Below, in pieces: positions 6,162 through 53,040 of a stretch of DNA of 64,000 nucleotides. Position 1 is the stretch's first letter; every line of letters starts with the position of its first letter. Source of the stretch: an uncultured Pseudomonadales bacterium (GTDB lineage Bacteria; Patescibacteriota; Microgenomatia; UBA1400; PJMF01); contig CAZNOF010000006.1 of the NCBI GenBank assembly GCA_964574595.1, forward strand, positions 21,532 through 85,531, given 5' to 3'. The translations under genes and the position numbers were made by a program. Below the pieces are notes generated by a model. It was not told the DNA's origin. It did not search any database and saw only the letters and a program-made list of their open reading frames with translations.

Positions 6162-7588
6162 TAGCCGATACTTCCTTCCATCTCATGATCAATCAATCTA
6201 TTCATCTCAACAGCGTACTCTAAAGGTAGTTTTTTTACTAATCCATCAATAAATCCATTCACGATCATTTTTCTAGACATCTCTTCAGTTAGGCCGCGAC
6301 TCATCAAATAAAAGAGCTGCTCTTCACCAATTTTAGAGACTGTAGCTTCGTGTTGAACTTCTACAATATTATTGAAAATTTTATCAACCGGATATGTGTC
6401 AGAACGTGATTCTGGATCCAGCAACAACGCATCACAAATCACAGTATTTTTACTGTGGTGAGCAAGTGGACCAACGTTGACCATTCCACGATAACTAGTG
6501 CGTCCACCATTTTTACTAATTGATTTTGAGATAATTGTTGAACTGGTATAAGGTGCTAAATGAGTAGCTTTTGAACCAGTATCCTGGTGCTGTCCCGCAC
6601 CAGCGAGTGCCATAGAAAGAGTCTCCCCTTTGGCACCTTTGCCAGCCAAAATAAAACCTGGATACTTCATGGTTAATTTACTTCCCATGTTAAAGTCGGT
6701 CCAAATCATCTCAGCTTCTGCGTCTACCCATGCGCGCTTTGTCACTAAGTTATAAATATTTTTGTACCAATTTTGAACGGTGGTGTACTGACAGCGACCA
6801 CCTTTTTTAACAAAGATTTCTACCACTGCGGAGTGCAAAGAAGACGAGGAGAATGAAGGTGCTGTACAGCCTTCCACATAATGAACTTTAGCGCCTTCAT
6901 CCACGATGATTAACGTTCGTTCAAATTGACCCGCATTGGCTGCATTAATTCTAAAGTAAGTCTGCAACGGCATCTTCACTTCCACACCCTTCGGCACATA
7001 GACGAATGAACCACCTGACCAAACTGCCGTATTTAAGGCTGAGAATTTGTTGTCGCCACTAGGAATTAACTTACCAAAATACTCTTTAATTAATTCTGGA
7101 TACTGCTTTAAACCTTCATCCATCGATAAGAAAACGACACCATCTTTTGCCCAAATATTTTTAAGCGAGCCGTAAACTACTTCAGAGTCGTACTGCATTT
7201 TGACACCGGCTAAGTAATCTCGTTCTGCTGCTGGAATACCTAATTTATCAAAAGTAGCTTGAATTTCTGGCGGCACGTCAGCCCATGTTTTGGTAGCATC
7301 GGCAGGGCGTAAATAGTAATGAATCGCGTCGTAGTTAATGTCACTTAAGTTGCCACCCCACATGGGAGTTGGTTTTGATTCAAATTGTTGTAAAGCAATC
7401 AACCGTAGCTTCAACATCCATTCCGGTTCCTGTTTAATTGCAGAAATCTCTCTAACCACACCTTCATTTAAACCTGGCTTGATAATATGTTGATAGTTAG
7501 TCGTTGGATACGAGAATCCCTGCTCATAAGAGTCATCTTTGAGACTTGGGTCTAGCTCCTCAGTGTGTTTAGCGGCGAATCGAGACAT
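6161..7588 (-). CDS. sufB: Fe-S cluster assembly protein SufB
   Basis: 475 aa. Highly conserved SufB sequence throughout, with C-terminal GF(I/V)..V motif. Confidence 0.9.
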   Translation of the reverse strand: MSRFAAKHTEELDPSLKDDSYEQGFSYPTTNYQHIIKPGLNEGVVREISAIKQEPEWMLKLRLIALQQFESKPTPMWGGNLSDINYDAIHYYLRPADATKTWADVPPEIQATFDKLGIPAAERDYLAGVKMQYDSEVVYGSLKNIWAKDGVVFLSMDEGLKQYPELIKEYFGKLIPSGDNKFSALNTAVWSGGSFVYVPKGVEVKMPLQTYFRINAANAGQFERTLIIVDEGAKVHYVEGCTAPSFSSSSLHSAVVEIFVKKGGRCQYTTVQNWYKNIYNLVTKRAWVDAEAEMIWTDFNMGSKLTMKYPGFILAGKGAKGETLSMALAGAGQHQDTGSKATHLAPYTSSTIISKSISKNGGRTSYRGMVNVGPLAHHSKNTVICDALLLDPESRSDTYPVDKIFNNIVEVQHEATVSKIGEEQLFYLMSRGLTEEMSRKMIVNGFIDGLVKKLPLEYAVEMNRLIDHEMEGSIG

Positions 7589-7590
7589 AA

Positions 7591-7902
7591 TTATTTGTAA
7601 ATGAGTTCCTCTAGCTTAGGAAGATAATTTTGAATATTTGCCAGTGCATCCTTCAACTTGTTGGAGTCTGCATCAGTAATATTTAAGTCAGCAATCCATT
7701 TGTCCATTTCAGTACGAAATTCTTGCCATTTCTCAGGGCTCACAGTTAAGTCACCCAACTCAATATCTGTCTTAATCGTGGACAACCTTGTGCCAATTTG
7801 TAATAAGTCTGAGTAACGTCGATTCTCATCCAGCGCGTGACCTTCACTTTTTGCACGTGACTTTATGGCTGCAATTCGATCGTCAAAATTGAGTTCACTC
7901 AT
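7591..7902 (-). CDS. hypothetical protein inserted between sufC and sufB (103 aa, acidic, coiled-coil-like)
   Basis: Intact ORF translationally coupled to both neighbours (ATGA-type overlaps). No known motif. Confidence 0.4.
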   Translation of the reverse strand: MSELNFDDRIAAIKSRAKSEGHALDENRRYSDLLQIGTRLSTIKTDIELGDLTVSPEKWQEFRTEMDKWIADLNITDADSNKLKDALANIQNYLPKLEELIYK

Positions 7903-8675
7903 ATTTTTTCGTATCCTTTTGCTTCCAGTTCAGCGGCGAGATCACGGCCACCACTCTGAACAATTTTGCCAGCTTTCATGACGTGGACAAAATCAGGCTG
8001 TAAATACTTCAAAATCCGCTGATAGTGAGTAATCACGACTACGCCAGTCTGATGCTTTTCTACGATCTTTTTGACACCTTCTGCCACGGCACGCATAGCA
8101 TCAACATCTAATCCAGAGTCTGTCTCATCTAATATGGCGAATTTTGGTTCTAAAACGGCCATTTGTAAAATTTCAACTCGTTTTTTCTCACCGCCACTAA
8201 ACCCTTCGTTCAAACCTCGTTTTAAGAGTTCTGGTTTTACCTTTAATTCTTTGGCTAAACTTTCCAAGTGCTTTCGAAAAGCGAGAACTGTTGGAAATAA
8301 ACGGCTTGGTTCATTAGCAAAACGAGCGTTGTATGCCAACCGTAAGAAGTTTTGGACTTTGACGCCCGTTACTTCTACTGGATATTGAAACGCTAAAAAG
8401 ACACCCATCGCCGCGCGTTCATCAGGAGATTTTGCGAGTAAATCAGTCCCATCCAGGATTATTTTTGAGCCAGCGGCTTCATCAACTTCGTAAAAAGGAT
8501 GCCCAGCCAATGTATATGCCAAGGTAGATTTCCCTGAACCGTTTGGCCCCATGATGGCATGAACTTCACCAGGTTTTACAACAAGGTCGACACCTTTTAA
8601 AATTTCAGTTCGTTGTTGAGTTTGTTGATCGACAACTGAGACAAAAAGATTGGAAATCTCTAAAGTATTTTTCAT
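7899..8675 (-). CDS. sufC: Fe-S cluster assembly ATPase SufC (ABC-type)
   Basis: Walker A GPNGSGKST, ABC signature LNEGFSGGEKKR, Walker B ILDETDSGLD. 258 aa. Confidence 0.9.
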   Translation of the reverse strand: MKNTLEISNLFVSVVDQQTQQRTEILKGVDLVVKPGEVHAIMGPNGSGKSTLAYTLAGHPFYEVDEAAGSKIILDGTDLLAKSPDERAAMGVFLAFQYPVEVTGVKVQNFLRLAYNARFANEPSRLFPTVLAFRKHLESLAKELKVKPELLKRGLNEGFSGGEKKRVEILQMAVLEPKFAILDETDSGLDVDAMRAVAEGVKKIVEKHQTGVVVITHYQRILKYLQPDFVHVMKAGKIVQSGGRDLAAELEAKGYEKI

Positions 8676-9202
8676 AGCTTTTGAGCTGCTTTCTGAGCGA
8701 TAAGTAGGTCAGTTTTAATATTGGGAACTAAGTTATAGGAATCTAATTTTGACAGATCAAACCACTCAATTCCATCAGTTTCTTGTAGATTTTGTGAGAA
8801 ATCGATGGAATCAATTGGCTCGACCAAATATAAAAAATTCAAGTGCTGCTCACAACCACGCTTCCATTTTGCCGCAACTGTGTAGTGTTCAGGATCGGCG
8901 ATTCTGGCATCAAAATTTTCACGAGAGACAAAATGCAAATTGGTAGAAATTGGGTTTGGTAAGTACTCGCTATCAGGATCAACAATTTTTGACTCGGGAA
9001 TGGCTTTGACTTTAATTCCAGTCTCTTCCCAAAATTCTCGTTCCGCAGCGGCATGTGGCAACTCATCTGGTTCAATATGCCCACCAGGATTTAACCACAT
9101 ACCTAATTTCTTATGTTTAACTAGTAAAACTTTATTGTTTTGGATTAATACAGCCGCCACAGTTAAGCAGATCTTCGCTGGGTATTGGTGCAGGTTTGCC
9201 AT
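8672..9202 (-). CDS. NUDIX hydrolase
   Basis: Nudix box GGHIEPDELPHAAAEREFWEETGI (Gx5Ex7REuxEExGu). Confidence 0.75.
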   Translation of the reverse strand: MANLHQYPAKICLTVAAVLIQNNKVLLVKHKKLGMWLNPGGHIEPDELPHAAAEREFWEETGIKVKAIPESKIVDPDSEYLPNPISTNLHFVSRENFDARIADPEHYTVAAKWKRGCEQHLNFLYLVEPIDSIDFSQNLQETDGIEWFDLSKLDSYNLVPNIKTDLLIAQKAAQKL

Positions 9203-9211
9203 GCCTGGATT

Positions 9212-9802
9212 TTACCATGATAAGAGGCTCATCTGAACCCCTGCATCCTTTTTGGGAGTAAAGGTGAAATCAACGTCGCACTCGACTAACCGATTCCATT
9301 TATTTTTGAATTTCACTTTGCCTGTTTTCAGCCCGTAATCGTAGATATCTCTGGTCACGGCTACATCTTGTAGACAGTACTTTGATAAACTTTCCCAATC
9401 CTTGCTTTTGTAGTACTTAATTGCATCTAGACCATCGCCACTTTTACCAATTCCAAGTGTTTCTTTGGCCACTGCGTCCAAGCCAATTCGATGACCTACG
9501 CTATTTTTAATCCTGACCAATAAGTCTAAAGTCGCAATTTTGGAGATATCACCTTTGTAATATGGCACAAATGTTTGCATGTCAAAGTTGTCACAGTTAA
9601 AGCCTACGATCACATCTGCGGCTTCAAGTAAAGGAAAAAGCTTTGGTAAATCTTTTTCAAAGTAGCCCTGCATCTCACCTTGTCCGCTAAATCCGTCTCT
9701 GATACAAACTCCCACAAAAGAAATACCTAACCGGTCGGGGAAAAATCCGCCGACTTCATCAAATGTTTTTTGTGTTTCCACATCAAGAATAATTTGTCGC
9801 AT
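9212..9802 (-). CDS. DEDDy-type 3'-5' exonuclease domain protein (RNase H-like superfamily)
   Basis: Exo I LDVETQ, Exo II GFNCDNFD, Exo III YCLQDVAVTRDIY (Yx3D) motifs. 196 aa stand-alone domain. Confidence 0.5.
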   Translation of the reverse strand: MRQIILDVETQKTFDEVGGFFPDRLGISFVGVCIRDGFSGQGEMQGYFEKDLPKLFPLLEAADVIVGFNCDNFDMQTFVPYYKGDISKIATLDLLVRIKNSVGHRIGLDAVAKETLGIGKSGDGLDAIKYYKSKDWESLSKYCLQDVAVTRDIYDYGLKTGKVKFKNKWNRLVECDVDFTFTPKKDAGVQMSLLSW

Positions 9803-9811
9803 ACGTACTAT

Positions 9812-10423
9812 CTAACTCATAGCCTCATCAAAGCGTCGCGCTACTTCTGACCAATTTACCACGTTCCAAAATGCTTTAATGTAATCTGGACGGCGATTCT
9901 GATAGTTCAAGTAATAGGCATGTTCCCAAACATCTAAGCCTAAAACAGGAGTATGACCCTCCATCAGTGGAGAATCTTGATTCGCAGTAGATATAACAGC
10001 CAGCTTCTTCTCTTTACTTACCACCAGCCAAGCCCAACCTGAACCAAATCTGTTGGTAGCAGCCGTGTTAAATTCTTCGGCAAACTTTTCAAAACTACCA
10101 AACTGTTGGGTAATTGCTTCAGCAATTTTTCCGGTTGGAGTGCCACCAGCATTTGGAGCTAAAATAGCCCAAAATAATGAATGATTCGCGTGACCACCAC
10201 CATGGTTTTGAACGGCCGTTTTAATTTCAGCTGGCACTTCATTGATACCTTCCACCAACTCTTCTACAGATTTGGCTGCAAGCTCTGGGAACTTTTCTAC
10301 CGCAGCATTTAATTTATCAACGTAGGTTTGATGATGTTTTGTGTAGTGAATTTCCATCGTCTTTGCGTCGATGTGTGGCTCTAAAGCTGCGTATTCATAT
10401 GGCAATTTTGGTAAAGTGTACAT
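9812..10423 (-). CDS. sodA: superoxide dismutase, Fe/Mn family
   Basis: [10 protein letters not shown], metal-ligand context DVWEHAYY. 203 aa. Confidence 0.9.
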
Positions 10424-10804: not shown

Positions 10805-10970
10805 AGTTGTGTCGAGTATAGCAAGTGAAATTGTCTGCCGCAAATTGGCTAATGATATAATAAATGAGTATTTGATCTGGAAATGACTAGTTTCACATGC
10901 TGAAATGAACCATTTCAGACCCTTATACACGCACATTCCAAAGTCCATATAGATGAAGAGGTAAGAACCC

Positions 10971-33980: not shown

Positions 33981-34995
33981 TTTGGACTCCTACTTCAAAC
34001 TCGTCAGGTGGAAGTAATTTTAGTAATGAGGTAAATTCGAGCTCTTCAAACAATTTTTCCACATCCTGCTTCTTATAGCTGGTTAAACGGCACTGTTCTA
34101 ACTCGAGAGTGATGGGTGCATTTCGATCAATAGTGGCGAGTTGCTGACTCAAAATGGCGTCTTCATGACCCTCAGCGAGCTTCTTGACTAATTTAGCAGT
34201 CATTATCTCATGTCTGCTAATTTCTTTTTCTCCAATTTGGATTGATTCATAGATCTTATTTAGACTATCAAATTCTTGAATCAATTTTATGGCTCCTTTT
34301 TCGCCGATTCCGGTGACTCCAGGGATATTGTCGGATGCATCACCCATTAAGGCTTTTAAATCCACAATTTGATCAGGTCGAACACCCATCCTGGCTTGGA
34401 CTTCTTCTGGGCCATACTCTCGATCAGGTAATTTAGGGGGTCTGCCTGGCATCCAAACGTGAGTGGTATCAGTTACTAGTTGAAAGGCGTCTCGATCGCC
34501 GGTGACAATGATTGTTAAATCTGGGACTAATCCTCGACCATCACCTTCTACTTGGCGCAACTCATCAAGTTGACGTGACAAGGTTCCAATTAGATCATCA
34601 GCCTCATATCCTGGCAGTTCAAACTGGGGAATATTCAGTGCCGTCACCACTTGCTTAATCAAATCAATCTGTCCCTTCAAGTCGTCTGGCATTTCAGCGC
34701 GGTTGGCTTTGTAACCTACAAAATCGGCATGACGGAAGGTGGGCTTAGCATTGTCGAATGTGCAAACGATATACTCCGGATCAAAGTCTTTAACGACCGT
34801 CAGCAAAATTCGAGTAAAACCGTATACGGCATTGACTAACAATCCTGAAGAAGTCGATAAATCACGAAACGCATGGTATGCACGATAGATCAGAGCATGA
34901 CCATCGATCAGGATGATGTTTTTTGACATGGGGAAATTGTAACACTTTACTCGATTTGAGCATAAAGCGATAATTGAGGAATGGTTGGCCATCAC
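33967..34995 (-). CDS. stand-alone 5'-3' exonuclease / flap endonuclease (Pol I N-terminal-domain homologue, no polymerase domain)
   Basis: LILIDGHALIYRAYHA N-terminus. Conserved acidic clusters. HhH-like GIGEKGA. 342 aa. Confidence 0.8.
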   Translation of the reverse strand: MMANHSSIIALCSNRVKCYNFPMSKNIILIDGHALIYRAYHAFRDLSTSSGLLVNAVYGFTRILLTVVKDFDPEYIVCTFDNAKPTFRHADFVGYKANRAEMPDDLKGQIDLIKQVVTALNIPQFELPGYEADDLIGTLSRQLDELRQVEGDGRGLVPDLTIIVTGDRDAFQLVTDTTHVWMPGRPPKLPDREYGPEEVQARMGVRPDQIVDLKALMGDASDNIPGVTGIGEKGAIKLIQEFDSLNKIYESIQIGEKEISRHEIMTAKLVKKLAEGHEDAILSQQLATIDRNAPITLELEQCRLTSYKKQDVEKLFEELEFTSLLKLLPPDEFEVGVQNALF

Positions 34996-35715
34996 TCCTC
35001 AGAAAACCTGACTCTGCCATCGCCTGAAAAACCAGTCACTAATCTGGAAGCGAGCCGGTTATTGGAAGTCGATGCAAATCCGTTGTTGTTGGGCAGAGAA
35101 AAGCTGTTCATCAAAAGACTTCTCAGTGGTTGTTCTGTCGCCCCATCTTCAGAAGTAACTCAGGTTGAGATTACTGGTATTTCAGCAGAGTCAAAAAAGG
35201 CGATCGAGTGGATGGTCCTTTGGGATGGACACAAGCGATCTCCCCAAGAGTTACTTGCCTTTATGAATCCTCGAGATCTTGGGCCACAAGTTGAGTTCAA
35301 TAAAAGCCATGTTCCCGAATTGCTCGATTCTCTTAAACTCTATTTTGCGGGTGTCACTGGGAATCTGGATAGCATCATTGAGCGAGTTACCAACAAAAAG
35401 GGTAACTGCCTCGAATACTCTTTAGTCATGCAGCTGGTATTAAAAGCCTACTACCCAGTTGAGGTGGCTGATGCTCAGTTGTTAGCATTCTCCTCTTTTG
35501 ATTACTCTAGACATTACTATCTCTATCACAAAGTGGTAGTCGAGGAACTCGATATTAACTTTCTGACGTTATTTAAAGGTCACACTCGCTGGAGATCTAG
35601 AGAAGAGGCAGAGGAAAAAATAAGAGAAGGCAGCACTGGCAAACAAGCTGACCAAGCCGCTATTTACGCCTCGTTTCTACAATTAGTTGATTACTCCTTA
35701 AAGAAAACTGATTGA
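34981..35715 (+). CDS. hypothetical protein
   Basis: 244-aa ORF with protein-like composition. No motif. Confidence 0.4.
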   Translation: MVGHHSSENLTLPSPEKPVTNLEASRLLEVDANPLLLGREKLFIKRLLSGCSVAPSSEVTQVEITGISAESKKAIEWMVLWDGHKRSPQELLAFMNPRDLGPQVEFNKSHVPELLDSLKLYFAGVTGNLDSIIERVTNKKGNCLEYSLVMQLVLKAYYPVEVADAQLLAFSSFDYSRHYYLYHKVVVEELDINFLTLFKGHTRWRSREEAEEKIREGSTGKQADQAAIYASFLQLVDYSLKKTD

Positions 35716-35745
35716 CTTTCAATCAGAAAGTCGTATTATCCCCCT

Positions 35746-35970
35746 CAGTACTTGCTTTGCCTTGGTTCGCCTCGGCATCCATTAAAGTGTTAGTTTTGCT
35801 CTGGCTACATTCCCCTATCCCCCTAAGGTGAAGTGTTCCAACGGTGTAAGATCAACAGGCAAAGCAAGTACTTCCTTATACTAAGGGAAGCGATTTGGTC
35901 CTATCGGATCATCTTCGCGAGACAGTTAGGAAAACTTTTAAAGCCCGCGGAGAAATCCAAGGGCTTTTTT
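35746..35970 (+). ncRNA. candidate structured ncRNA A (about 225 nt) with its own promoter (TTGACT-16-TATTAT at 35712-35739) and intrinsic terminator (AAGCCC-N-GGGCUUUUUU at 35941-35970)
   Basis: No ORF. Consensus promoter. Transcript begins at a 15-nt segment AGUACUUGCUUUGCC (35747-35761) perfectly complementary to 35858-35872. Ends with a hairpin + U6 terminator. Confidence 0.45.
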
Positions 35971-36030
35971 ATTGCTTTCTTTCCCATTTCTCTTTCTTGA
36001 CTTCACTTTCAAAAATCGTAGAATCATGCA

Positions 36031-36333
36031 CGTACTTGCTCTGTTCTGGATAATTCCGGATGGCAGATTATGGATGCGGGAAGCGCCTGGTGGCGCTGAC
36101 CGAATGAATGATGATGGGCTCCTTGTGTGGGATCCCTCAACCTGCACAAGGGCAAATGTGAAATGTGGTTAGCAACGGTAAAGATGAAGTTTGCCGGAAA
36201 ATCGCAGCCGCGTAGAAAAGGATAGAGCAAGTACTCCTCGTGTTACTTTTCGGCCGGTTCATCCGAGCCGCCACCGCAAAGTGACACCAGACCAATTTGA
36301 AACCTAGGACGAGTTTGCTCGCTAGGTTTTTTT
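36031..36333 (+). ncRNA. candidate structured ncRNA B (about 300 nt), paralogous 5' end to ncRNA A; promoter TTGACT-16-TAGAAT (35997-36024), terminator 36301-36333
   Basis: No credible ORF. 5' segment GUACUUGCUCU (36032-36042) complementary to AGAGCAAGUAC (36225-36235). Several internal hairpins (AGCGCC/GGCGCU, CCUUGUG/CACAAGG). Strong terminator ACCUAGGACGAG-UUUG-CUCGCUAGGU + U7. Promoter/5' end about 70% identical to element A. Confidence 0.45.
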
Positions 36334-36397
36334 ATACTTGTGCACATTAACATCCCTTTTAAGATTTTTAGACTATTTAGACTAAGGAGCAGAGACA

Positions 36398-37009
36398 ATG
36401 GCTACGAAATCGTTACGTGATGCTCGTGGTGAGTTAGTGCTCGATCCCCTGAGATTGTTGGCTTGGTCAGGCTACCACGTGCCGCTCAGCCATCAGTTGA
36501 GTCGTGAACGGTATCTGTGGGATTCTGGCGTGGTTGCTTTGATTGTTGGGAACGAAGGTCAAGTTTCTAGAACGATTGGTCCATTCGCCCTGAAGGAAGT
36601 TCAGTTTGAAACGCGGCAAATGCTGACAAATGCGCGTGAGTGGATGCAGCAAGAGATGAACGATTTCTACCATCGGATTACCCTCAATGACTGGCAGATT
36701 GCCAAAATCTGGAGTTACTCACTCCATCCCAACTTCAAGCTCTTCAAGCATACAGTTGGTGAGCCGTTCCACGTTACTGAATTTAAGGTGGCTGATCTGA
36801 AGTCTGTGGCGGATAAGGCTTGGTCTGTCTGGGAATGGTACGGAGCAATCAGGACACACACCGAAAGTAGCGTCCCATTCAATGAATTTACTTTGTCAAA
36901 TGTGCGCGTTACGTTCGCCAATGCCGGCGCGGTTTATTCAGCCGGTGGCATCAACTTTAAAGACGGATTGGACATGGTTCGAGAGCTGCATGTCGGCGAA
37001 AACACATAG
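36398..37009 (+). CDS. hypothetical protein, GC-richer than neighbours
   Basis: 203-aa ORF with AAGGAG RBS 8 nt upstream. Codon composition visibly GC-shifted. Confidence 0.45.
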   Translation: MATKSLRDARGELVLDPLRLLAWSGYHVPLSHQLSRERYLWDSGVVALIVGNEGQVSRTIGPFALKEVQFETRQMLTNAREWMQQEMNDFYHRITLNDWQIAKIWSYSLHPNFKLFKHTVGEPFHVTEFKVADLKSVADKAWSVWEWYGAIRTHTESSVPFNEFTLSNVRVTFANAGAVYSAGGINFKDGLDMVRELHVGENT

Positions 37010-37040
37010 TCAAGAAATCAAATTAAGGAGTTCAGCACAA

Positions 37041-37068
37041 AACCGCTTCATATGAGGCGGTTTTTTAT
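37041..37068. terminator. bidirectional intrinsic terminator (AAACCGCUUCAUA/UGAGGCGGUUUUUU)
   Basis: Hairpin with 7/8-bp stem flanked by an A-run and a U-run between convergent 36398..37009 and ftsH. Confidence 0.5.
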
Positions 37069-48331: not shown

Positions 48332-48400
48332 CGCGGGATAGTGTACGGTGCACGTGAGGCTCATAATCTCGCAGGTCGGGTTCGACTCCCGATCCCGCAA
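48332..48400 (+). tRNA. tRNA with CAU anticodon (Met / initiator-like; 69 nt, CCA not encoded)
   Basis: Hand-folded. Acceptor CGCGGGA/UCCCGCA with a C1·A72 mismatch and A73 (E. coli tRNA-fMet has CGCGGGG/CCCCGCA+A). U8 A9. 3-bp D stem GUG/CAC with a GG-containing loop. Anticodon loop CUCAUAA. Perfect T arm UCGGG-UUCGACU-CCCGA. Followed by a weak hairpin + U7. The anticodon stem has two G·U pairs and Y11:R24, which is atypical for initiators. Confidence 0.5.
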
Positions 48401-48459
48401 CATAAGAAACAAGAAAATCGCCCCAGAGGCGGTTTTTTTGTACCTCTGCCTAAGATTTT

Positions 48460-51018: not shown

Positions 51019-51914
51019 TTTTTACGAAGCTTATAAACGAGTTTTTGATGAACAGGAATAGCTTCAACTGAGAAGCCAAGCTGCTTAAAGCAAGCCATCA
51101 GTTCGGCGTACTGGGCCAAACAATATTCATACCAATTAGTCAATGATTTGGCTTGTTCAAAAACACTTCTGTAGTGAACGACCAGCAGGGTTCCTTCTGG
51201 TTTCATTAATGAAGTGATGTGTCTAGCCAGAAACATCAACTCTGGCGATTTGCCAGACATCAGTTCTTGGGTAGCTGTTTTAAATAGCTCAGCATCTCGA
51301 TATAACTCTTGAATGTGCTGGCCCGACTTTTCCGCCCAAGTATTTAACAAATAATCATCAAGAAAATGATTGGTCGTTACAAGATCGTATTGTGGGTCAT
51401 TTGGCAGAACGAGGAGTTCAGAAACCAGTTTTTTGACAGCGAATTGAGGGTGAAAAAAGCGTAAAACTGTCTCTAATTTCTCCAATGAGGCTAGATCCGT
51501 ATCCAACAACGCAACTTCCCCTGTAAAGTTATGACGAGCCAATGCAATCTCAACTTTGGGAGCCCAGCCAGGCAGCAGATCAATCACGTTCATTTCCGAA
51601 GTCAATTTCACTGATTTCAGTAATTCATACCAGAGGTCTGAAATGTGATGGAAGCCTTCTAAATAACGCATGAACTCAGCGGTTCTTCTGCCTACATCGT
51701 CATGTTGCCTGCCAATGAATTCTGTCTCCGAGTACAGCCCCTTCTCGGCATACTCGACCATAAACTGTAAGTCAAAAGCCACGTTTTCTTGCTCCAAAGG
51801 CGTCAACGTAGAACTCAGTTTTTGCAGGCGGTCTAAGTAAGAAGATATTTGAGAAGAGGTGGATGAGGTGCTCATGAGGAATTGCCGTATAATATCATCT
51901 GGAACACTCGCCAT
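51015..51914 (-). CDS. hypothetical protein with weak Rossmann/SAM-methyltransferase-like motifs
   Basis: VIDLLPGWAP (motif I-like), VALLDTD (motif II-like), DLVTTNHFLDDY (motif IV-like). Start uncertain because the annotated start overlaps the divergent gene. Confidence 0.35.
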   Translation of the reverse strand: MASVPDDIIRQFLMSTSSTSSQISSYLDRLQKLSSTLTPLEQENVAFDLQFMVEYAEKGLYSETEFIGRQHDDVGRRTAEFMRYLEGFHHISDLWYELLKSVKLTSEMNVIDLLPGWAPKVEIALARHNFTGEVALLDTDLASLEKLETVLRFFHPQFAVKKLVSELLVLPNDPQYDLVTTNHFLDDYLLNTWAEKSGQHIQELYRDAELFKTATQELMSGKSPELMFLARHITSLMKPEGTLLVVHYRSVFEQAKSLTNWYEYCLAQYAELMACFKQLGFSVEAIPVHQKLVYKLRKN

Positions 51915-53040
51915 GCAACTTGATCAATCCACCACTTCTGCCGAAGCAATTCAGTTGAGAAAAAAACTGACCAGAATTGCGCGTGGCTTACGACATACAA
52001 CACTGCCTGAAGTTCTTGACTATTCCCTGCCTCAATCCGTCTCATCAGATACGATTCGTTTTAAAGACACCTTCATCTCTCGAAAGCGGATTGTGCTTTT
52101 AACCGGAAGTTGTAGTGTTGCCAGTTGTACGATGTGTCATTTGCCCAATGAAGCACTTTGGAAAGATCGGCCACAGCCCACACAAAAAAACTTGCTGGAT
52201 CAGTTTTCGGCCGCGTTCGCAGAAGACAAGATCAATAATTACGACATGATCACGATTTATAATAACGGCAATTTTTTTTCCGATCGCGAAGTTCCACCTG
52301 AGGTGCGCCTCAAGATTGCTGATCAAATTAATACCGCTGGCTGCAAGTACTTGCTCGTCGAGTCTCTTCCCCAGTTCATCACCTCAACAGCACTTCAAGA
52401 AATGAGTACGGCACTTGGAAATACCAAGCTCGTCCTATCGATTGGTCTCCAATCTGCCAATGACTATGTGCGTGAAGTGGCGGTGAACTCAACTTGTTCA
52501 AAACAACAATTTGAACGAGTGGTCAAGGAAGCCACCGAACTTGGTCACGAGATAATGACCTTCTTAATGCTCAAACCACCTTTTTTAACGGAACAAGAAG
52601 GCATTGATGACATGATTCAAAGCTTAGAGTACCTGACGTCTTTAGGACTCACAGAAACTGCCATTTGCCCAACTCAAGTTTCTGACTTTACGATTGCAGA
52701 TGTCCTTTTCACTGAGAAATCATTTACTCCACCGTGGTTATGGTCGGCGATAGAAGTTTTAAAGATTGCTCAACAAAAAAACCTGACTTTGCCACGCTTT
52801 GCCACATCCGTCTTGAGCTCTTCACATCTTGAGAATTTAAAGTTGGCGTATAATTGTGATCAATGTTCTGATCGATTCATCCATCTTTTAGAAGAATACA
52901 ATAACTCAAGAAATATTGATGCTCTCGTCAATTTTTCATGTTCATGCAAAGAAGAATATGATCGGCAACTTGCCCAAGCAGTCACCTTAGAAAGCTTAGA
53001 ATCGCGCATTACGGCGTTCACTCAAGCCCATTTTGTCTAA
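51859..53040 (+). CDS. radical-SAM-like protein with non-canonical Cx4Cx2C cluster and C-terminal extra Cys motifs (start uncertain; Met at 51916 possible)
   Basis: LLTGSCSVASCTMCHLP (C-x4-C-x2-C). TIM-barrel-like length. C-terminal CDQC...SCSC. Confidence 0.4.
   Translation: MDEVLMRNCRIISSGTLAMQLDQSTTSAEAIQLRKKLTRIARGLRHTTLPEVLDYSLPQSVSSDTIRFKDTFISRKRIVLLTGSCSVASCTMCHLPNEALWKDRPQPTQKNLLDQFSAAFAEDKINNYDMITIYNNGNFFSDREVPPEVRLKIADQINTAGCKYLLVESLPQFITSTALQEMSTALGNTKLVLSIGLQSANDYVREVAVNSTCSKQQFERVVKEATELGHEIMTFLMLKPPFLTEQEGIDDMIQSLEYLTSLGLTETAICPTQVSDFTIADVLFTEKSFTPPWLWSAIEVLKIAQQKNLTLPRFATSVLSSSHLENLKLAYNCDQCSDRFIHLLEEYNNSRNIDALVNFSCSCKEEYDRQLAQAVTLESLESRITAFTQAHFV

Follow-up and report, generated by a model that had tools for sequence, protein, structure and literature searches.

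What is encoded in the gap between a 244-aa gene and a 203-aa open reading frame of this genome, which belongs to the Patescibacteria (CPR), a group of ultra-small bacteria? An earlier note on the window (the whole 64,000-nt stretch of DNA that was analysed) had placed here two tandem non-coding units, A and B, on the + strand and had read them as paralogous RNAs without a match, with a 6S-like pair and a novel lineage-specific structured RNA as two options. We found that its promoters, closing helices, terminators and paralogy stand, and the option of a lineage-specific, unmatched structured RNA is supported, whereas the 6S-like option, the partial similarity to RNase P RNA and the raised GC content are not. 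In our view A and B are probably real RNA genes. The best explanation overall that we propose, held with somewhat less than even confidence, is an undescribed, fast-evolving sRNA family of a narrow Patescibacteria clade.

Two predicted RNA units on the + strand

The features of unit A are as follows.

35712-35972, + strand: unit A, with promoter, closing-helix domain, 3' hairpins and terminator
35712-35739, + strand: promoter, -35 TTGACT (35712-17), 16-nt spacer, -10 TATTAT (35734-39), 10/12 to the sigma-70 consensus
35746-35972, + strand: predicted RNA A, about 225 nt, with closing-helix domain, two 3' hairpins and terminator
35747-35762, + strand: 5' arm of the closing helix P1, AGUACUUGCUUUGCCU, beginning at the predicted transcription start
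35817-35825, + strand: apical loop AUCCCCCUA, a UCCC-type pyrimidine loop at the tip of a long internal hairpin
35857-35872, + strand: 3' arm of P1, AGGCAAAGCAAGUACU, 16 nt, 100% complementary to the 5' arm
35940-35970, + strand: intrinsic terminator, an AAAGCCC..GGGCUUU stem (hairpin 35940-35967) followed by a U-run, in the MFE and centroid folds

The predicted RNA A has a minimum free energy (MFE) of -75.9 kcal/mol (z -4.5), and none of the shuffled sequences folds as well. Its closing helix encloses 94 nt, giving a closed domain of 126 nt with the arms, and the fold shows a one-sided bulge of about 24 nt in thermodynamic prediction. The loop AUCCCCCUA (RNA positions 72-80) is unpaired with a probability of 0.96-0.99, a value reached by 1% of shuffles. 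The -35 box of unit A overlaps the TGA stop codon (35713-15) of the upstream 244-aa gene.

Unit B follows with the same general order of elements.

35997-36335, + strand: unit B, with promoter, closing-helix domain, 3' hairpin and terminator
35997-36024, + strand: promoter, -35 TTGACT (35997-36002), 16-nt spacer, -10 TAGAAT (36019-24), 10/12 to the sigma-70 consensus
36031-36335, + strand: predicted RNA B, about 305 nt, with a closing-helix domain holding four internal hairpins, a long 3' hairpin and terminator
36032-36047, + strand: 5' arm of the closing helix P1, GUACUUGCUCUGUUCU, part of a 16-nt inverted repeat
36132-36140, + strand: apical loop AUCCCUCAA on an 11-bp stem
36219-36234, + strand: 3' arm of P1, AGGAUAGAGCAAGUAC, forming 14 Watson-Crick and 2 G.U pairs with the 5' arm
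36237-36289, + strand: long 3' hairpin GUGUUACUUU...AAAGUGACAC in the MFE fold, with a counterpart in the related locus L037
36299-36333, + strand: intrinsic terminator, an AACCUAG..CUAGGUU stem (hairpin 36299-36330) followed by U7

The predicted RNA B folds at -127.1 kcal/mol (z -6.1), again with no shuffle folding as well, while the opposite strand reaches only -92.3 kcal/mol (z -3.05). Its P1 encloses 171 nt, so that the closed domain measures 203 nt with the arms, and both DNA mismatches in the helix become G.U or U.G pairs on the + strand. In the MFE and centroid predictions the interior is a multi-branched junction. The loop AUCCCUCAA is unpaired with a probability of 0.97-1.00, which none of 100 shuffles attained. 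The L037 counterpart of the long 3' hairpin (GUGUUACUUUCGGCCGG...) is conserved, with changes of the wobble type only.

Both promoters lie where the earlier note had put them, and the closing inverted repeats of A and B are present, although its coordinates for the 3' arm of B were off by one. Its terminators also held: both appear as hairpins followed by U-runs in the MFE folds, and a simple terminator scan overlooks them because their outer loops exceed 8 nt. The claim that local GC is clearly higher was not borne out, as 200-nt windows range from 0.43 to 0.505 in the gap and from 0.41 to 0.52 in the flanks. The gap contains open reading frames of 66-69 aa, which had been dismissed as not credible; no encoded peptide is conserved between the units or in relatives (tblastx, all E>0.1). 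A small protein or type I toxin gene was rejected on the same comparison between the units, which gave no match below E 0.1, and on the lack of any ATG ORF of at least 10 aa in unit A.

Paralogy of A and B

Over their promoter and 5' segments A and B share about 70% identity, as noted earlier, and the 22-base pattern of promoter plus 5' arm matches only A and B in the 64 kb, with 0 matches expected. The 10-mer AGTACTTGCT that the note had pointed out is exact in the 5' arm of A and occurs as AGCAAGTACT in both 3' arms, while the 5' arm of B carries CGTACTTGCT. In hand-made alignments, the P1 helices of A and B differ by three compensatory double changes and two wobble changes, with no disruptive change in the 16-bp core; the L037 row of this P1 alignment may fuse arms that belong to two different units on either side of an assembly gap. 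The arms ACUUGCU/AGCAAGU are the sole internal sequence identical in A, B and L037, and the interiors diverge. The common promoter, 5' arm and 3' arm, together with a similar AUCCC apical loop, support the view that A and B are paralogues, as judged from sequence.

Relatives and distribution

The comparison set consists of five units from four genomes, namely A and B of the window and one unit each from L037, L046 and L052. L037 holds clear orthologues, with an A-like 5' part (local-alignment z 8-9) and a B-like 3' part (z 9.5-9.9), and it probably also carries a tandem pair that is hidden by the assembly gap (N10, L037 10893-10902). In L046 and L052 a promoter-to-terminator RNA of the same build stands at the same site, with no detectable sequence similarity (z about 0); its homology to the window type is thus positional and architectural only. 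More distant relatives have nothing at this site. The genomes of L042 and L045 lack the RNA here.

Near-consensus promoters with 16-nt spacers were found in all five units (11/12 in L037, 11/12 in L046 and 10/12 in L052), as were hairpin-plus-U terminators, and the TTGAC-N14-TCGTA..AT layout of unit A recurs in unit B and in L037. The MFE z-scores of the folded units range from -4.1 to -6.4. Mismatches in the long helices are all G.U-compatible, and on the RNA strand only: this holds for the two in P1 of B and for each of the 6-7 in a 22-bp helix of L052, whose RNA strand folds at -122 kcal/mol versus -109 for the opposite strand. The tail hairpins of L046 and L052 differ by three double changes within 5 bp, and UACUU...AAGUA helices recur in both. 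A covariance model of these two tails was dropped, as MAFFT placed their first hairpin out of register and a pair of sequences provides no power.

Further copies of the units were sought in the 64-kb window and 133 related loci, and none was found; with the five units as queries, blastn returned self matches only from 1.09 Mb of related loci, and a regular-expression search for ACTTGCT...AGCAAGT helices gave nothing convincing. A metagenome scan with the promoter plus 5' arm pattern yielded 0 matches, viral scans with three patterns yielded none or chance matches in coding or unrelated DNA, and blastn against phages yielded no match. Among the best 24 of 80 metagenome loci from a scan with the FtsH C-terminus, no RNA-sized non-coding gap follows ftsH. 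Any 300-340-aa ORF next to ftsH in those 24 loci begins at most about 150 nt past the ftsH stop, sometimes behind an ORF of about 140 aa. At 92% FtsH identity the RNA can still be recognised, and at 87% it no longer aligns. On this sequence evidence, the RNA family is restricted to a few close relatives and evolves very fast.

The insertion site and its neighbours

The RNA pair sits in an insertion site of variable content between ftsH and the gene for a 5'-3' exonuclease. This site is an indel hot-spot whose occupants in relatives are unrelated to each other, including proteins of 523 aa and 993 aa, and the locus marks a point of insertion within a gene pair that was once contiguous. We rejected the reading of the RNA regions as pseudogene remnants, since neither tblastn nor blastp detected any similarity of the 523-aa, 993-aa, 244-aa and 203-aa proteins to these regions or among themselves.

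Neither neighbouring gene appears to be tied to the RNA. The 244-aa family has no Pfam match, and its AlphaFold2 model (pLDDT 85) gives weak matches to papain- or transglutaminase-like proteases and suggests no RNA-binding fold. A partnership of this protein with the RNA was rejected because L046 and L052 carry the RNA without a 244-aa gene alongside, and the distant family members P0004, P0005 and P0011 are located elsewhere with no adjoining RNA. The co-oriented 203-aa ORF starts 65 nt downstream of unit B; a link to it was likewise rejected, as it is an orphan that is missing from relatives, and its product bears no relation to the 208-aa protein encoded next to P0004.

In L037, L046 and L052 the units run into the 3' end of a convergent ftsH with no gene downstream, which indicates a free-standing gene and not a leader. 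A riboswitch or other cis-acting leader was rejected on this arrangement and on the position of A, which precedes the promoter of B.

Tests against described RNA families

At the gathering score, Rfam 15 reported only a tRNA-Met at 48332 in the whole window, and at E<=10 it returned chance-level noise over 35600-36450, L052 and L046. ARAGORN detected no tmRNA. No described family explains either unit, in agreement with the earlier failure to match them to tmRNA, SRP RNA or a riboswitch, for which no model matched even at E<=10. RNase P RNA, to which partial similarity had been suggested, gave no model match at E<=10 either, and the sole string resembling GAAAGUC (35725-35731) falls outside the transcript, within the spacer of the unit A promoter. 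The 6S-like option fared no better: no 6S model matched, B is predicted to fold as a multi-branched domain and not a rod, and about 100 nt of hairpins lie beyond the closing helix.

A retron ncRNA (msr-msd) was rejected because the neighbours are the 244-aa family, the 203-aa orphan, the 5'-3' exonuclease and FtsH, with no reverse-transcriptase gene; an a1/a2-like inverted repeat is present and by itself is not diagnostic of a retron. A MITE or other inverted-repeat element is not supported either, given inverted repeats with no flanking direct repeat, no dispersed copies in the window or the 133 related loci, and arm changes that are compensatory or G.U on one strand.

As in UCCC-loop anti-Shine-Dalgarno (anti-SD) sRNAs, each unit stands alone as a gene that has a promoter and an intrinsic terminator of its own. 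The UCCC is unpaired in the apical loops of A, B and L037 (probability 0.80-0.99; 0-7% of shuffles), and in L046 and L052 its probability of 0.58-0.63 is matched by 26-41% of shuffles and is not significant. The RsaE and LhrC models of Rfam gave no match.

Proposed function and alternatives

Most likely, the RNAs act as ordinary regulatory small RNAs. Each unit would be transcribed from its own strong sigma-70-type promoter into an RNA whose very first stretch is the 5' arm of a helix of 16-19 bp; this helix would close a branched domain and bury the 5' end, and additional hairpins and the intrinsic terminator would complete the unit. As trans-acting base-pairing regulators, the RNAs could use the exposed UCCC-type loop (AUCCCCCUA in A, AUCCCUCAA in B) to pair with the purine-rich Shine-Dalgarno sequence of target mRNAs and so block translation initiation. 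The closing helix and terminator may provide stability, and the duplicate copies may serve dosage or divergent target ranges. In Rsa RNAs and RNAIII, unpaired UCCC motifs bind SD sequences and 5' hairpins have been proposed to confer stability (PMC2790875), and the UCCC motifs of the multicopy LhrC sRNAs bind the SD region (PMC4132741). The anti-SD loop mechanism specifically, suggested by this analogy with UCCC-loop sRNAs of Gram-positive bacteria and by the unpaired loops of A, B and L037, is possible, though we would not favour it over its negation. UCCC is a short motif, which counts against it, and typical anti-SD sRNAs are smaller than A and B and have simpler folds. When 57 start regions in the window were scanned with RNAduplex, only long nonspecific duplexes came out and no target was identified. 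The invariant arms ACUUGCU/AGCAAGU hint at sequence-specific recognition, which the base-pairing model leaves unexplained.

Alternatively, the RNAs could be bound or processed by protein, with the invariant closing duplex (GUACUUGCU / AGCAAGUAC, 16-22 bp) as a protein platform or RNase III site of an RNP scaffold or sequestering RNA. We consider this unlikely. The arms are identical in A, B and L037 despite diverged interiors, similar UACUU...AAGUA helices appear in L046 and L052, the long helices are either perfect or interrupted by wobble pairs only, and the RNAs are large and multi-branched. However, no candidate partner was found, the 244-aa protein being disfavoured by both its gene neighbourhoods and its model, and the arm identity of A and B could stem from recent duplication or gene conversion. 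A bolder version, which we think improbable, would make the RNAs a Patescibacteria-specific structured class: the same duplex would be a platform for specific recognition or for processing, the closed domains of 126 and 203 nt would in mature form be components or decoys of an RNP and not ordinary antisense sRNAs, and the ftsH-exonuclease junction would be a dedicated landing site exchanging such genes. A 6S-like pair sequestering RNA polymerase as open-promoter mimics is very unlikely. The long closing helix of 5' and 3' sequences, the closed domain of about 200 nt in B, the strong promoters and the precedent of two 6S paralogues in some bacteria speak for it; yet no 6S model matched the window, L046 or L052 even at E<=10, the MFE and centroid folds of B lack a rod with a two-sided central bubble, the closed domain of A has only 126 nt, hairpins of about 100 nt follow the closing helix, and sequence turnover is far above the expectation for a polymerase-binding RNA.

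The units might also have no RNA function, as MITE-like relics or structured filler whose promoters and bidirectional terminator insulate ftsH and its neighbours. The hot-spot with its unrelated occupants, the resemblance of the arms to 16-bp terminal inverted repeats with a common end sequence, the very narrow distribution and the fast turnover would all fit. Nevertheless, there is little chance that this is so: target-site duplications and further copies in the 64 kb or the 1.09 Mb of related loci are absent, the two arms change in a coordinated way between A and B, mismatches give G.U pairs on just one strand, and all five units retain near-consensus promoters on the RNA strand with nothing downstream needing them. 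Least credible of all is that the units act in cis as a leader of the 203-aa gene (a tandem riboswitch or an attenuator), or that they encode a small protein or toxin. Unit B does present a P1-closed multi-stem domain and a terminator 65 nt upstream of that co-oriented ORF, but A is followed by the promoter of B and not by a gene, the ORF is an orphan, no riboswitch model matched and no peptide is conserved; the gene order of L037, L046 and L052, where the units end at the convergent ftsH, largely disposes of the leader.

Comparison with known systems

Lineage-specific sRNAs are common in bacteria, and for this reason the regulatory sRNA pair that we favour is unsurprising in kind. Full-text literature searches turned up no account of regulatory RNAs from Patescibacteria (CPR). 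The duplicated, well-delimited locus is a concrete candidate for metatranscriptome mapping; it lets UCCC-loop regulation, known from Firmicutes, be tested in reduced genomes and shows how fast such RNAs turn over.

Bacterial Y RNAs (YrlA/YrlB) are encoded in tandem next to rsr and are paralogous, and their terminal sequences form a long protein-binding stem. The RNAs described here are similarly tandem, paralogous and structured with paired terminal sequences, but there is no match to a Y-RNA model, no TROVE/Rsr protein among the annotated neighbours and no tRNA-like module. They share with 6S RNA (SsrS) the long 5'-end helix, the strong promoter and, in B, the size of the closed domain. Unlike 6S RNA, they turn over rapidly in sequence and match neither its model nor, in the predicted folds, its rod with a central bubble; since about 100 nt lie beyond the closing helix, the transcript's 3' end is not part of it.

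The LhrC copies are about 100 nt long, near-identical to one another and not known to have a long 5'/3' closing helix. The present pair differs from them in phylum, in matching no Rfam sRNA and in its divergence, A and B being so different that only promoter, arms and loop align. It resembles LhrC1-5 of Listeria monocytogenes in consisting of sibling copies with a promoter each, four LhrC copies lying in one locus, and there the UCCC in loops or single-stranded stretches binds the G-rich SD region of the target mRNA (PMC4132741). RsaE/RoxS and other Rsa RNAs of Staphylococcus aureus, like hairpins of RNAIII, combine a 5' hairpin thought to be stabilising with a rho-independent terminator; in Rsa RNAs the unpaired UCCC of the most conserved regions pairs with the SD, and the fold persists although the helices vary in sequence (PMC2790875). 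Here, in contrast, sequence and covariance-model similarity to Rsa RNAs is absent, a long-range helix that closes 94-171 nt takes the place of a local hairpin as the 5' element, and for the relatives L046 and L052 the evidence on UCCC is weak. By analogy, the pair would be an analogue of the UCCC-loop anti-SD sRNAs and not a member, and the best reading is a new, fast-evolving, lineage-specific sRNA pair matching no described family.

Two tandem units of one design

The gap at 35716-36397 is flanked by a 244-aa ORF (34981-35715, +) and a 203-aa ORF (36398-37009, +). Promoter, inverted-repeat and fold analysis revealed the same design in units A and B, as the earlier note had described, and the coordinates proposed there proved correct to within one base.

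Features of units A and B
35712-35739, +, promoter of A, TTGACT-16-TATTAT, 10/12 against consensus
35747-35762 / 35857-35872, +, arms of the closing helix (P1) of A, 16 nt, perfect, enclosing 94 nt
35940-35970, +, GC-rich stem and U-run of A, 3' of the helix and hairpins
35997-36024, +, promoter of B, TTGACT-16-TAGAAT, 10/12 against consensus
36032-36047 / 36219-36234, +, arms of P1 of B, 16 nt (14 Watson-Crick pairs, G.U and U.G), enclosing 171 nt
36299-36333, +, GC-rich stem and U-run of B, 3' of the helix and hairpins
Minimum free energy: A, -75.9 kcal/mol, z -4.5; B, -127.1 kcal/mol, z -6.1

Because the inverted repeat starts 7 nt past the -10 box in both units, each predicted transcript opens with a long domain-closing helix. 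None of the shuffled sequences matched the fold strength of A or B, and a 22-base pattern of promoter plus 5' arm occurs twice in the 64 kb, at A and B only, with 0 matches expected. The locally raised GC content that had been noted did not hold up (gap 0.43-0.505 vs flanks 0.41-0.52).

The earlier view that the gap encodes no credible protein was borne out: tblastx comparison of the units with one another and with their relatives found no conserved peptide (all E>0.1), and unit A has no ATG ORF reaching 10 codons. The fold of B is much weaker on the reverse strand (-92.3, z -3.05, vs -127.1 forward), as is that of the unit in the related locus L052 (-108.8 vs -122.2); the strands of A are alike (-73.2 reverse, -75.9 forward). 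The imperfections in the long helices, two in P1 of B and six to seven in the 22-bp 5' helix of L052, are all G.U on the proposed RNA strand and become A.C mismatches if read on the other. Within the 16-bp core of P1, three pairs differ between A and B on both sides, two have turned wobble and none is disrupted. Promoters, terminators, strand-specific helices and the lack of coding potential therefore make it likely that A and B are a pair of stable RNA genes.

Known RNA classes and mobile elements

Rfam 15 at E<=10 returned nothing for the gap, L052 or another related locus, L046, in keeping with the earlier note, which had matched neither RNA to tmRNA, SRP RNA or a riboswitch, and giving no support to a resemblance to RNase P. 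A tRNA-Met (CAT) at 48332-48401 (+) is the sole Rfam or ARAGORN match in the window. A leader or riboswitch was rejected, since in three genomes the unit stops against the ftsH 3' end with no downstream gene; a retron, since no reverse-transcriptase gene lies nearby; and a MITE, since the units lack a target-site duplication, their two arms have changed in concert, and neither the window nor 1.09 Mb of related loci yielded a further copy. Sequence comparison excluded a decayed copy of the junction's alternative occupants. A perfect AGTACTTGCT at 52342-52355, overlapping its own palindrome within ORF 51859-53040, is probably a chance match because it has no partner arm. An exact copy of GTGTTACTTTCGGCCGG lying in a short stretch between genes of a high-GC viral contig (L039 7300-7404, IMG/VR UViG_3300042938_001279) was likewise judged chance, the rest of that contig being unlike unit B.

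Related RNA loci

L046 and L052 each carry one unit of 330-350 nt, with a same-strand promoter (11/12 and 10/12, in that order; 16-nt spacers), a helix beginning at the transcription start, fold z of -4.1 and -6.4, and a terminator common to the RNA unit and the convergent ftsH. They are clearly homologues of one another (alignment z 12). Both also have a tail hairpin with three compensatory changes among the five pairs of its inner stem. In sequence, neither resembles the window type significantly (alignment z ~0), so that their putative kinship with A and B is one of position, orientation, promoter layout and architecture.

A third relative, L037, has the same promoter as the window units (TTGACA-16-TATTAT, 11/12) and the arms GGACUUGCUGU (5') and AUAGCAAGUUC (3'). 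Its 5' part aligns best to unit A (z 8-9) and its 3' part to unit B (z 9.5-9.9); an N10 scaffold gap (10893-10902) lies inside the RNA locus exactly between them, and an independent Logan contig (L038, end 3732) breaks at the same base. We infer from this a tandem RNA pair collapsed by assembly, in which the apparent L037 closing helix may join arms from two different units. A four-sequence count of P1, on a hand-built alignment whose L037 row possibly mixes two units, gave 93% of cells paired and double changes in 8/16 pairs, and 0/500 shuffles reached the observed pairing or covariation score; for that reason its L037 row was given no weight.

The ftsH-exonuclease junction

The host belongs to the Patescibacteria (CPR): a MAG recorded as 'Patescibacteria group bacterium' is its closest genome at species level, and the named relatives of its FtsH are Candidatus Pacebacteria or Patescibacteria. 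In distant relatives (FtsH ~78%, and locus L001), a 5'-3' exonuclease gene directly follows ftsH, co-directionally; the two are contiguous in L001 (5950-6080), L053 and the P0021 locus. Across the 24 metagenome loci that matched best, a co-directional, exonuclease-sized ORF of 300-340 aa mostly comes within ~150 nt of ftsH, sometimes with a ~140-aa ORF before it. Within the clade of FtsH identity >=85% the junction is opened, with varied occupants always in opposite orientation.

Occupants of the junction
Window (34996-37067): 244-aa gene, RNA A, RNA B, 203-aa orphan ORF
L037: 242-aa gene and RNA
L046 and L052: RNA alone
L042-44: unrelated 523-aa ORF (L042 6998-8569)
L045: unrelated 993-aa ORF (6996-9977)

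The 523-aa and 993-aa ORFs have no Pfam domains. The junction is an insertion hot-spot in this clade, with unrelated, always antisense-oriented occupants. No sigma-70-like promoter was detected on the exonuclease strand of the L046 (4684-5122) and L052 (3643-4080) spacers, where the -35 box of the RNA is only ~37 nt away from the start codon of the exonuclease gene. The exonuclease there may rely on transcription reading through from ftsH, in which case the RNA would lie antisense to this intercistronic transcript.

The family of the 244-aa protein is rare, comprising 11 clusters (50% identity) in a set of 1.8 billion representatives; N33, P34, E40, G66, N142-C143-x-E145, Q151 and L168 are invariant, and R177 in an R-H motif is nearly so. 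The AF2 model of the protein (pLDDT 85) gave no more than weak fold matches (E>0.05), with USP28, vasohibin and LapG among papain/transglutaminase-like cysteine proteases, and the protein is probably a cysteine peptidase. An RNA tied to this protein was rejected: the family is found elsewhere without the RNA, and the two are unlinked. A strong ribosome-binding site (AAGGAG) accompanies the 203-aa ORF, which has no homologue but itself among 5.8 billion proteins, no Pfam, PHROG or NCBIfam match and no counterpart in L037; by these searches it is a true orphan. In its longest form (GTG at 34995) the exonuclease ORF overlaps the divergent 244-aa gene at the start of the latter (34981). Since exonuclease relatives start at MSKNI/MSRNI, the true start is probably near 34929, which would leave ~50 nt for two divergent promoters. 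Elsewhere in L037, at 6820-7848 on the minus strand of that locus, the GH39 and glycosyltransferase genes, which in the window lie only 17 nt apart, are separated by an insertion of three genes for small Arg-rich proteins (62, 49 and 52 aa). All three have a Shine-Dalgarno sequence and a terminator of their own, and two also have a near-consensus promoter (TTGAAA-TATAAT).

Possible function

The predicted folds of A, B and L037 each place, inside the closed domain, an apical hairpin whose pyrimidine loop bears UCCC (AUCCCCCUA, AUCCCUCAA and CUUCCCCUCAUCC, respectively), with an unpaired probability of 0.8-0.99, equalled by <=7% of shuffles. In L046 and L052 there are UUCCUUC and UUCAUCCC loops, for which the unpaired test was not significant. 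Given this display and the precedent of other UCCC-loop RNAs, we tentatively favour trans-acting repression of translation, which the exposed loops of A and B would exert. The main rival, an RNA bound by protein or processed by RNase III, appears rather less probable; it is suggested by the invariant arm sequence ACUUGCU/AGCAAGU, which an antisense model leaves unexplained. A functionless relic we consider improbable, and the 6S-like role that the earlier note had offered for A and B is more doubtful still. No target or partner of the two RNAs was found.

The distribution of the family is very narrow. Its main interest lies in the very cleanly delimited locus, together with the fact that we found no described regulatory RNAs of CPR bacteria in the literature. 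The family is new and of an ordinary kind, that of the free-standing bacterial sRNA. Rsa RNAs, RNAIII and the multicopy LhrC sRNAs share, as their recognised signature, unpaired UCCC loops that pair with the Shine-Dalgarno sequence (PMC2790875; PMC4132741), and a 5' hairpin has been proposed as the source of the stability of Rsa RNAs (PMC2790875).
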